A DNA stretch of 64,000 nt from a virus, in the IMG/VR virus record IMGVR_UViG_3300027734_000038; one strand, 5' to 3'. Positions within the stretch are counted from its first letter, which is position 1, and every line of letters begins with the position of its first letter. The notes under the pieces were generated by a model. The model searched no databases. It saw only the letters and a list, made by a program, of their open reading frames with translations, and had not been told where the DNA came from. A program made the position numbers and the translations under genes. Below, piece after piece: positions 3,000 through 57,494 of this stretch.

Positions 3000-3263
3000 A
3001 TGTTTACTATTCAATATGTTAAAGATTTGCAATGGTGTGATACAGAACACACTTTTTTTACTTGCGTTGCTAAATACGAAGAATTTAACGAAGAACATCC
3101 AACTGGTGTAAATGCAACTGACCATTATGCTCATATACAAGAAATTTGGGCTAAAGGTAATGCAGGCGAATATGGGGTAATTGCTGAATACATACCGCCA
3201 CCACCTGAAATCCCACCACTTCCTGATCCCGTAGTAACACCTGAACCGCCTGTTTTGGAGTAA
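3000..3263 (+). CDS. small fibre-assembly partner protein
   Basis: AGGA RBS; GEYGVIAEY-PPP motif typical of fibre chaperones; follows tip gene. Confidence 0.55.
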   Translation: MFTIQYVKDLQWCDTEHTFFTCVAKYEEFNEEHPTGVNATDHYAHIQEIWAKGNAGEYGVIAEYIPPPPEIPPLPDPVVTPEPPVLE

Positions 3264-54790: not shown

Positions 54791-54921
54791 TGGAACAACA
54801 TATTTGTGTAGTTTGTGGCCATGTCCACGATGAACAGACAGAAGGTAAATGGAAAGATTTACCTGAAACTTTTGAATGTCCTGAATGTGGTGTAGGTAAA
54901 GAAGATTATTACATTTTATAA
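54790..54921 (+). CDS. rubredoxin, 43 aa (not in ORF track)
   Basis: MEQHICVVCGHVHDEQTEGKWKDLPETFECPECGVGKEDYYIL*: CxxC...W..LP..F.CPxCG. Confidence 0.9.
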   Translation: MEQHICVVCGHVHDEQTEGKWKDLPETFECPECGVGKEDYYIL

Positions 54922-55409
54922 TGAAACAAAAATTTATTGATGCTTATATGGATGTGGCAGAAAGATTTGCTAAGTTATCTTCTGCCAAACGATTGCAGGT
55001 GGGCGCCATTGTGGTAAAAGAAGATAGAATCATATCTATTGGATACAATGGTATGCCTGCAGGCTGGACAAATGAATGTGAAGAAAAAGAGTATTTTATT
55101 GGTAATATACCAGAAAAATATAGTACCGACCCATGGATATTCAAAGACGAAGATGGTGGTGTTGGACGCATTAAAACCAAAACGGAAGTGATTCATGCAG
55201 AAGCCAATGCAATCGTTAAGTTGGCCAAAAGTAATGATTCTGGAGATGGTTCTACCATGTTCCTAACCCATGCACCTTGTGTAGACTGTGCCAAACAGAT
55301 GTATGCCATGGGTGTCAAATCGGTATATTACCGCCATTCCTATCGAGATAATGACGGCTTGACATTCTTGGAGAAGTGTGATATAATGGTATCTAAGGTG
55401 GAGAAGTAA
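54921..55409 (+). CDS. cd: dCMP deaminase
   Basis: QVGAIVV, GYNG, HAEANA, PCVDC. Confidence 0.93.
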   Translation: MKQKFIDAYMDVAERFAKLSSAKRLQVGAIVVKEDRIISIGYNGMPAGWTNECEEKEYFIGNIPEKYSTDPWIFKDEDGGVGRIKTKTEVIHAEANAIVKLAKSNDSGDGSTMFLTHAPCVDCAKQMYAMGVKSVYYRHSYRDNDGLTFLEKCDIMVSKVEK

Positions 55410-56007: not shown

Positions 56008-56037
56008 AACCCTAGTTTTTACTAGGGTTTTTTATTT
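56008..56037 (+). terminator. intrinsic terminator
   Basis: AACCCTAGT-TTTT-ACTAGGGTT plus T-run. Confidence 0.75.
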
Positions 56038-56059: not shown

Positions 56060-56087
56060 TTGACATATTGTATGGTTCGTGTATAAT
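56060..56087 (+). promoter_or_regulatory. sigma70 promoter of tRNA cluster
   Basis: TTGACA-N16-TATAAT. Confidence 0.8.
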
Positions 56088-56099
56088 GGTTCACTTAAT

Positions 56100-56174
56100 G
56101 CACCTATCGTCTATCGGTTAGGACACCGCCCTTTCACGGCGGGAAGAGGAGTTCGATTCTCCTTAGGTGTACCA
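56100..56174 (+). tRNA. tRNA-Glu(UUC)
   Basis: GCACCTA/TAGGTGT acceptor, CCGCC-CTTTCAC-GGCGG, GTTCGATTC, encoded CCA. Confidence 0.95.
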
Positions 56175-56175
56175 C

Positions 56176-56259
56176 GGAGCAGAAGAATCAATGGTGATTC
56201 AGCGGACTGTAAATCCGCCGCCTCTGGCACGCTTGGTTCGATCCCAAGATGCTCCACCA
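56176..56259 (+). tRNA. tRNA-Tyr(GUA)
   Basis: GCGGA-CTGTAAA-TCCGC, long variable arm, GGTTCGATCC, CCA. Confidence 0.93.
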
Positions 56260-56308
56260 AATTTAACTTTACAATAATTTTAAAAAACTTTACAATCGGG
56301 AGAGTATT

Positions 56309-56470
56309 ATGAAAAAGAAAACTACTCCTCAACCACGAAACTATCTTGTCAAATTGGCATTGTTTCGTAAAGCAGGAGTTCATCGTAAGAGTAACAAAGC
56401 AGTAAGGCGTTCCGAGAAGTCTAAAAAATTGTATCCTATTATGTGCATTAACTTAGGCTATTGTCTATAA
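56309..56470 (+). CDS. basic 53-aa micro-protein, ArfA-like architecture (not in ORF track)
   Basis: GGGAG RBS; MKKKTTPQPRNYLVKLALFRKAGVHRKSNKAVRRSEKSKK-LYPIMCINLGYCL*; stop lies inside a 15-bp hairpin. Confidence 0.6.
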   Translation: MKKKTTPQPRNYLVKLALFRKAGVHRKSNKAVRRSEKSKKLYPIMCINLGYCL

Positions 56471-56481
56471 TAGGATACAAT

Positions 56482-56556
56482 GTGAGAGTGGCAGAGTGGT
56501 CCAATGCAACGGCCTGCAAAGCCGTAAATCCGTGAGTTCGAATCTCACCTTTCACT
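56482..56556 (+). tRNA. tRNA-Cys(GCA), CCA not encoded
   Basis: GTGAGAG/CTTTCAC, ACGGC-CTGCAAA-GCCGT, U73, followed by TCA. Confidence 0.92.
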
Positions 56557-56579
56557 TCAAAATATACCACACAAAGTTG

Positions 56580-56608
56580 TTGACAAAGTAACATAAGTAG
56601 TGTATTAT
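56580..56608 (+). promoter_or_regulatory. sigma70 promoter
   Basis: TTGACA-N17-TATTAT. Confidence 0.75.
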
Positions 56609-56617
56609 GGTTTAAAT

Positions 56618-56684
56618 GCGGTGTGTGATAGCACGACAGAAGATACCCTCTTTTGTTATCTGAGCAAAGCAGACCACCGCTCCA
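56618..56684 (+). ncRNA. 67-nt non-canonical tRNA-like RNA (Gly-type acceptor)
   Basis: GCGGTG/CACCGC-T-CCA acceptor enclosing three hairpins; no TTC T-loop or D-loop GG. Confidence 0.7.
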
Positions 56685-56689
56685 AATTT

Positions 56690-57021: not shown

Positions 57022-57279
57022 ATGGTTTTGCAACCTATGAAAGATAAGATTATTGTTTCACGAATTGCTGGAGAAAAACAAACTGAATTTGGTATTATTC
57101 TCAAATCATCAGAAGGTCCTGATAGAGCATTAGTTGAATCTATTGGTCCTAAAGTTGATGAAGTTTCTGTAGGTGATGAAGTTCTAATTAATTGGAATGG
57201 CGCAGTTAAAGTTTCTGGTAAAGAAATTGAAAAAGAATTGTATGTTGTTGCTATCGAACACGTAATATTAATTTTTTAA
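57022..57279 (+). CDS. groES: GroES-like co-chaperonin
   Basis: LQPMKDKIIV, T..GIIL, V.SIGP.V..V.VGD.VL. Confidence 0.85.
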   Translation: MVLQPMKDKIIVSRIAGEKQTEFGIILKSSEGPDRALVESIGPKVDEVSVGDEVLINWNGAVKVSGKEIEKELYVVAIEHVILIF

Positions 57280-57284
57280 TCTAT

Positions 57285-57358
57285 AGCGGGTTGGTGAAAA
57301 GGAATCACAGAGGACTCATAATCCTCAGTTCTTGGTTCGAGTCCAGGATCCGCAACCA
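57285..57358 (+). tRNA. tRNA-Met(CAU), initiator-like
   Basis: GAGGA-CTCATAA-TCCTC; A1:A72 mismatch; CCA. Confidence 0.88.
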
Positions 57359-57371
57359 CTAAGGAGATGTT

Positions 57372-57494
57372 ATGACTGAACAAAAGAAACCAGCAGTAAT
57401 CAAACCAATTCAAAAAGCACCACAACAACCAAAACCAAAACAAACATTTGTTCCTAAGATGACTGTGCAACGCAAAGCAGGTAGGGGAAGATGA
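57372..57494 (+). CDS. basic 40-aa micro-protein
   Basis: AAGGAG RBS; ends QRKAGRGR*. Confidence 0.55.
   Translation: MTEQKKPAVIKPIQKAPQQPKPKQTFVPKMTVQRKAGRGR

Follow-up and report, generated by a model that had tools for sequence, protein, structure and literature searches.

Conserved small basic proteins encoded in phage tRNA operons are candidate ribosome rescue factors made from non-stop mRNA

The window, a 64,000-nucleotide stretch of viral DNA (IMG/VR record IMGVR_UViG_3300027734_000038), contains a very basic 53-residue ORF (56309..56470, plus strand) amid phage tRNA genes. This ORF is a real protein-coding gene. Its amino-terminal core and the junction between that core and a structured RNA are conserved among its phage relatives, and a transcription terminator is present inside the ORF in some of its bacterial homologues. 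The combined analysis assigns a probability of roughly 0.5 to the reading that the ORF represents a new, independent, and unnamed family of ArfA/BrfA-like rescue factors that would be produced from non-stop mRNA.

The ORF is part of a tRNA operon that spans window positions 56060-56560. A terminator-like hairpin of the preceding gene (56008-56029) lies upstream of a sigma-70-type promoter (56060..56087, plus strand) consisting of TTGACA, a 16-nt spacer, and TATAAT, which matches the consensus at 12/12 positions. Judged by its sequence, this promoter would drive a unit composed of tRNA-Glu, tRNA-Tyr, the ORF, and tRNA-Cys. The tRNA-Glu(UUC) (56100-56174) and tRNA-Tyr(GUA) (56176-56259) genes precede the ORF in the same orientation, and the spacer between tRNA-Tyr and the ORF is 49 nt. 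The first-pass annotation had described a 53-residue ORF with a good ribosome-binding site among the tRNAs, and this description holds: a GGGAGAG Shine-Dalgarno sequence (56298-56304, plus strand) is located 4 nt ahead of the ATG. The relatives of the ORF have AGGAGAG at the same spacing. Codons 1-40 (56309..56428, plus strand; MKKKTTPQPRNYLVKLALFRKAGVHRKSNKAVRRSEKSKK) encode the conserved core, which is the predicted functional protein. Codons 41-53 (LYPIMCINLGYCL) together with the TAA stop at 56468-56470 form a non-conserved tail (56429..56470, plus strand) that is a translated hairpin, and these 13 residues are predicted to be rarely or never made. The hairpin itself (56428..56481, plus strand; arms 56428-56443 and 56466-56481) encloses the stop and abuts tRNA-Cys(GCA) (56482..56556, plus strand) on its 3' side.

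Several other features surround the ORF. A promoter-like site (56268-56296, plus strand; TTTACA, a 17-nt spacer, and TACAAT; 10/12) is positioned directly upstream of the Shine-Dalgarno sequence, and if it were used, the transcript would begin at the ribosome-binding site. A near-consensus promoter (56580-56608, plus strand; 11/12) is followed by a structured stretch of ~70 nt and then by tRNA-Gly (window 56580-56689), and the same structured stretch recurs downstream of the gene in several relatives (e.g., L012-L014). Another 40-residue basic ORF (57372-57494, plus strand), which has the C-terminal sequence ...QRKAGRGR, directly follows tRNA-Met (57285-57358). Its match to the family profile is weak and non-significant (E 0.88 within the window), and it may be either a degenerate paralogue or a chance ORF. 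The tRNA island is flanked by a dCMP deaminase gene (54921-55409) and a GroES-like (Cpn10) gene (57022-57279). The phage belongs to the T4-like viruses as a distant member. Among GenBank phages, a near-identity DNA search gave no close relative for the window, and a distant DNA search returned the tRNAs and nothing else.

RNA folding of 56400-56500 pairs 56428-56443 with 56466-56481 in an uninterrupted 16-bp stem that is lengthened to about 22 bp by 3+2+1 inner pairs. The folding energy of this 101-nt stretch is -25.3 kcal/mol (z = -2.4). The hairpin begins at the final base of codon 40, the TAA stop is inside its 3' arm, and the arm ends at 56481, with tRNA-Cys starting at 56482. A hairpin with perfect arms and the stop in the 3' arm had been claimed from the first inspection of the sequence, and folding reproduces it. 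The hydrophobic tail noted at the same time is real in the window, where it is the translation of the hairpin, and its conservation does not extend outside the closest subgroup. The hairpin has no T-run and is followed by a tRNA; it is not a terminator. Within the window's stem group, 89.5% of pair cells are paired compared to 31-51% in slid registers, and compensatory changes are found at one pair that occurs as UA, AU, GC, and GU and at another that occurs as UA and CG. The ORF and its hairpin are more than a chance arrangement because the homologues are many and the stem recurs at the same place with compensatory changes. The hairpin is a candidate for cleavage by RNase III (or for another processing step), the result of which would be a non-stop mRNA. 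The stop lies 11 nt upstream of tRNA-Cys and thus survives RNase P cleavage, so the non-stop status of the window message depends on the putative cut in the hairpin. A hairpin at the 3' terminus could just as well stabilize the mRNA or act as a processing signal.

A word-indexed search identified 151 close homologues of the window ORF, which are 43-93 residues long and all unnamed. The family occurs at 55 loci in IMG/VR, and an exhaustive profile search (E<=1e-3) expanded it to 579 clusters at 50% identity. The consensus over the first ~40 residues is MKxKxxxxxRNPFVxLALFRKAGxHRKSNKAxRRxEK. Asn11, Gly23, Lys30, and Arg33 are invariant family-wide, and Arg10, Val14, Ala22, His25, Lys27, and Ala31 are >90% conserved. 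The basic 40-residue core proposed in the first-pass annotation therefore coincides with the conserved codons 1-40. The pN/pS ratio is 0.29 across 45 distinct phage cores. In the same cores, the third codon position varies at 29/29 sites compared to 14-17 for the first and second positions, and the core motif is maintained in genomes from 33% to 72% G+C. These data show that selection acts at the protein level, and that it acts on the core only. The family tails range from 2 to 110 residues with a median of 21, neither the position of the stop nor the tail sequence is conserved, and many of the tails in the databases are translated tRNA sequence. We did not detect a known family for the window protein in Pfam (0 matches, E<=10), PHROGs, or NCBIfam, and ~160 family members (142 + 20) had no family in the same three libraries. 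DUF7230 (PF23876), a protein-atlas lead that accounted for 10% of one neighboring cluster, was not confirmed: 142 + 10 members gave no match at E<=0.1 to 10. Acidovorax phage ACP17 has an unannotated core copy (151751-151855) between two annotated genes, and its host belongs to the Burkholderiales, the order carrying the chromosomal homologues. This copy has no in-frame ATG, GTG, or TTG start and no tRNA nearby, and it may be decaying or using an unusual start.

The end of codon 40 was located in 49 distinct viral loci, including the window, and the sequence that follows was inspected. Structured RNA begins within a few bases of codon 40 in 49/49 loci. A stop ahead of the structure was found in 0/49; the stop is always inside or beyond it. 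All of the phage copies in this tally are inside tRNA clusters. The first-pass annotation had suggested looking among homologues for a conserved core plus a stop-containing hairpin, and the outcome is positive and stronger than expected. The structure is an uninterrupted 15-26 bp stem in 31 of the 49 loci, with its start at -5 to +8 nt relative to the end of the core. The stem sequences are of at least three unrelated kinds, with the 5' arms TTGTATCCTATTAT, GTGGTTATAGTAAAG, and ATTATTATAGTGAAG. The stop of these stem loci is in the 3' arm (18 loci), in an insert enclosed by the stem (6), or beyond the stem (7), and the 3' end of the stem adjoins the next tRNA (-2 to +4 nt) in 21/31. A stop beyond the stem is sometimes within the next tRNA, which explains why many database tails end in ...HSVHSTTDSAVAF, a translated tRNA-Arg. 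In the other 18 loci the structure is a tRNA: tRNA-Lys(UUU) has its start at -9 to +3 nt relative to the end of the core, and the stop is 7-86 nt into the tRNA. The overlap of the ORF with tRNA-Lys is also found in contigs of 52% and 59% G+C. The cultured Synechococcus phage BUCT-ZZ01 has it as well; there the ORF is annotated as a hypothetical protein, and its end is 21 nt past the start of tRNA-Lys.

In the distant phage clades (L036-L055 and L109-L111; 33-59% G+C), the gene is directly followed by tRNA-Lys(UUU) in every case. The gene and tRNA-Lys(UUU) are a deeply conserved pair. The anticodon nuclease PrrC acts on tRNA-Lys, and a link between the pair and PrrC defence is conceivable. The stems of eight relatives (L018, L020, L022, L025, L027, L031, L034, and L035; ~3120-3250 in each) are long-range, 19-26 bp in length, and close around structured inserts of 75-100 nt. 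Some of the inserts have a T-loop-like GGTTCGAAAC hairpin, and an Rfam scan found no Rfam family in them. The inserts may be degenerate tRNA-like elements. Within a phage tRNA array, L031 2810-2893 matches the tmRNA model weakly (26.9 bits vs a gathering score of 47) and is probably a tRNA-like element.

The family is also a single-copy chromosomal gene in the Burkholderiales, including Thiomonas species. It is present in 30/201 sampled Burkholderiales genomes and in only 11/401 genomes of a phylum-wide sample, 7 of the 11 being the same Burkholderiales genomes. The chromosomal copies are not adjacent to tRNAs; the Thiomonas copy is near pilin, O-antigen ligase, and Uma2 genes, and an Rfam scan of 20 bacterial loci returned only a TPP riboswitch and one tRNA, with neither result being informative. 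An intrinsic terminator is located between the core and the stop in 11/42 bacterial loci (L072, L077, L079, L081, L082, L084, L085, L087, L089, L090, and L097) compared to 0.6 expected from the background rate in these loci. In these terminators an A-run precedes and a T-run follows a GC-rich stem; they start 13-57 nt past the core, and the stop comes 3-97 nt further on. Their sequences vary between genomes, their position is constant, and their translation gives rise to tails such as GRDDFPPFFF. In roughly three quarters of the bacterial members, and in the phage members L112 and L114, an ordinary stop is reached without any preceding structure. Thus, non-stop control is not a family-wide rule. 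ArfB is encoded by 14/30 family-positive genomes compared to 114/201 of all sampled Burkholderiales genomes, and no complementarity between the two distributions is apparent from these counts. ArfA is present in only 3/201 Burkholderiales genomes and is too rare for a comparison of this kind.

AlphaFold2 produced a confident model of the Leeia oryzae member (pLDDT 86.5). From an N-terminus that is extended, the model runs through a short helix covering the RNP-hydrophobic segment and an AG.H loop to a long, basic helix at the C-terminus. Foldseek did not find a structural neighbor of this model in the PDB. Burroughs and Aravind describe charged helices for rescue factors (PMC6514570), and the predicted C-terminal helix is of this kind.

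The proposed mechanism begins with the release of a small mRNA from the tRNA precursor by tRNA processing. In the window, 3' processing of tRNA-Tyr would set the 5' end of this mRNA, RNase P cleavage at 56481/56482 would end it at the base of the hairpin, and cleavage within the hairpin would truncate it at about codon 40. RNase III is the most plausible enzyme for the putative cut in the hairpin type because the stems amount to about two helical turns of nearly perfect duplex. The truncating tRNA gene of many relatives points to RNase P rather than RNase III. In the tRNA-Lys type, an RNase P cut at the 5' end of the overlapping tRNA would create the non-stop mRNA, and in the bacterial homologues transcription would stop at the terminator within the ORF. 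Ribosomes would then reach the 3' end of the non-stop message, and tmRNA would normally tag the product for degradation, so the protein would accumulate only when trans-translation is saturated. The trigger in a phage could be broken mRNAs and tRNAs arising from the infection, from the phage's own host shut-off, or from host nucleases. The basic C-terminal helix of the untagged 40-mer would enter the empty mRNA channel and promote peptide release, probably with the involvement of a release factor, and ribosomes would stay available for the phage. A bolder form of this reading, that the family is a fourth independently evolved solution to stop-codon-independent rescue, common to Burkholderiales chromosomes and T4-like phages, and that its phage members are sensors set by tRNA processing and gated by tmRNA, with which the phage would turn on a rescue factor of its own when nucleases attack host translation, is offered tentatively and falls short of an even chance.

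We hold the rescue reading at about one half because the window stop is retained after RNase P cleavage, some members have ordinary stops, the family co-occurs with ArfB, and the cleavages are predicted ones. Its chief competitor is the reading that the same protein has another role connected with the ribosome or with tRNA. The protein would be a small basic RNA- or ribosome-associated factor that works, for example, as a cofactor of tRNA maturation or protection, a modulator of the ribosome, or an inhibitor of host trans-translation, and tRNA processing may still govern its expression. The location of the phage copies in tRNA clusters, always directly before tRNA-Lys(UUU) in the distant clades, would suit such a job, as would a highly basic protein with a predicted long helix. 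Resemblance to the known rescue factors is absent and the family co-occurs freely with ArfB, both of which also favor this alternative. Yet the bacterial homologues are away from tRNAs and 11/42 still have a terminator inside the ORF, a design described for arfA and brfA (PMC8012679). On balance, we consider a different job for the protein less likely than rescue, though more likely than the other alternatives.

The overlap with hairpins and tRNAs might instead reflect genome compaction and RNA processing only. The protein would then carry the tail that its frame happens to give and end at its annotated stop, free of any tmRNA-linked control, and the hairpin would be a processing signal, a 3' stabilizer of the mRNA, or an element for tRNA-Cys maturation. 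The abutment of the stem on the next tRNA in 21/31 stem loci is what a processing or stabilizing element would show, the stop inside the hairpin in 18 stem loci, including the window, is kept after RNase P cleavage, and some members have plain stops. A functional C-terminus is hard to reconcile with a stop whose position is unconserved even among close relatives and with tails of 2-110 residues, however, and the stop of the tRNA-Lys type falls within a tRNA whose excision is required. In independent lineages of bacteria, a terminator also precedes the stop. These observations make an explanation by compaction and processing improbable. Least probable by far is the idea that the ORF lacks a function of its own and either arose by chance or encodes a leader or attenuator peptide. 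The ORF is very short, upstream of a structured RNA, and unannotated in some records, as such an element might be, but its amino acids are conserved in 579 clusters at 33-72% G+C with a pN/pS of 0.29, its Shine-Dalgarno site is conserved, and 40 conserved residues are not the behavior of a leader peptide. This conservation pattern effectively refutes the idea.

If the rescue reading is correct, the window ORF would encode the first alternative rescue factor from a phage, and its family would be a new protein family for the rescue function. Reviews expect further rescue solutions that are hard to find (PMC8012679), and the literature searched describes no phage-encoded Arf-like factor. A tRNA gene that overlaps an ORF would be a new route to a deliberately stop-less mRNA. 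A function would be assigned to one of the enigmatic small ORFs of phage tRNA islands, and phage tRNA clusters would be tied to counter-defence against host systems that cleave tRNA or mRNA. The bacterial members would be candidate back-up rescue factors for the Burkholderiales, the order in which only 3/201 sampled genomes have ArfA.

The ORF had originally been called ArfA-like. One part of this idea stands, which is the structure inside the ORF before the stop, as in genuine arfA; no sequence test identifies the family as a relative of ArfA. The N..L..LFR resemblance on which the original comparison drew is not significant. When the family was compared with an ArfA alignment by hhalign, 'LFR' was the only aligned stretch (probability 0.09%), and ArfA homology is rejected. 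The wider profile comparison with ArfA, BrfA, and DUF families by Pfam, hhalign, and PDB profile searches gave no match. PF03889, the family of alternative ribosome-rescue factor A as found in E. coli and Neisseria, matched 0/142 family members in Pfam and was detected neither in three phage records nor in five host-type genomes that carry the family. Profile searches across the full set of PDB chains, which has ArfA and BrfA entries, gave no relevant match at E<=10. All ArfA sequences of the comparison set have KGKGSY, and this type of motif, located in the channel-binding tail, is absent from the family, which has G..H.K..KA.R (AGxHRKSNKAxRR) instead.

The architecture of the two families is nevertheless alike. 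Both ArfA and the family are small and basic, with a core of ~40-55 residues and an unconserved, often hydrophobic tail, and in both the tail results from translating a hairpin or terminator in the RNA ahead of the stop. The genuine ArfA set has the same pattern of a conserved core and free-running tails. The arfA locus L067, a Neisseria-type ArfA recovered with PF03889, has an A-run, a GC stem, and a T-run inside the ORF; this terminator translates as WRDGFDTVPPFLCL, and the stop follows 45 nt later. The family differs from ArfA in having HRKSNKA in place of KGKGSY, a shorter core (40 residues), phage-encoded members in tRNA operons, and a truncating element that is often a tRNA gene.

ArfA, BrfA, and ArfT are reported to be independent small basic families (PMC8012679), and in its independence the family described here resembles BrfA. 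The arfA message has a hairpin with RNase III cleavage or premature termination, the brfA message has a terminator before the stop, and the truncated-mRNA design lets trans-translation repress the products of both genes (PMC8012679). The rho-independent terminator inside the BrfA ORF (B. subtilis YqkK) has its counterpart in 11/42 bacterial members. BrfA is reported to be limited to Bacillus, whereas the family is found in the Burkholderiales and in phages. The family does not match the solved BrfA chain, and the window has a hairpin and a tRNA rather than a terminator. The BrfA-ribosome entry in the PDB is 6SZS (PMC8012679). ArfT of Francisella tularensis is a 40-residue protein with a KKGGSTNKK stretch and is reported not to be regulated through a truncated mRNA (PMC6299226). 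The family core is also 40 residues long, both have a basic C-terminal S/T-N-K-K, and some family members share ordinary stops with ArfT; KKGGSTNKK and RKSNKA were compared by eye, from the quoted ArfT motif alone. The tRNA islands of T4-like phages, like the window, have small ORFs interspersed among tRNA genes in one operon. In the literature searched, no ORF is described that has its stop codon within the following tRNA. The proposed rescue factor would belong to a known kind, the tmRNA-gated small rescue factors, and what would set it apart is that its protein family is unrelated, that it is encoded by a phage, and that a tRNA gene can be the putative truncating element.
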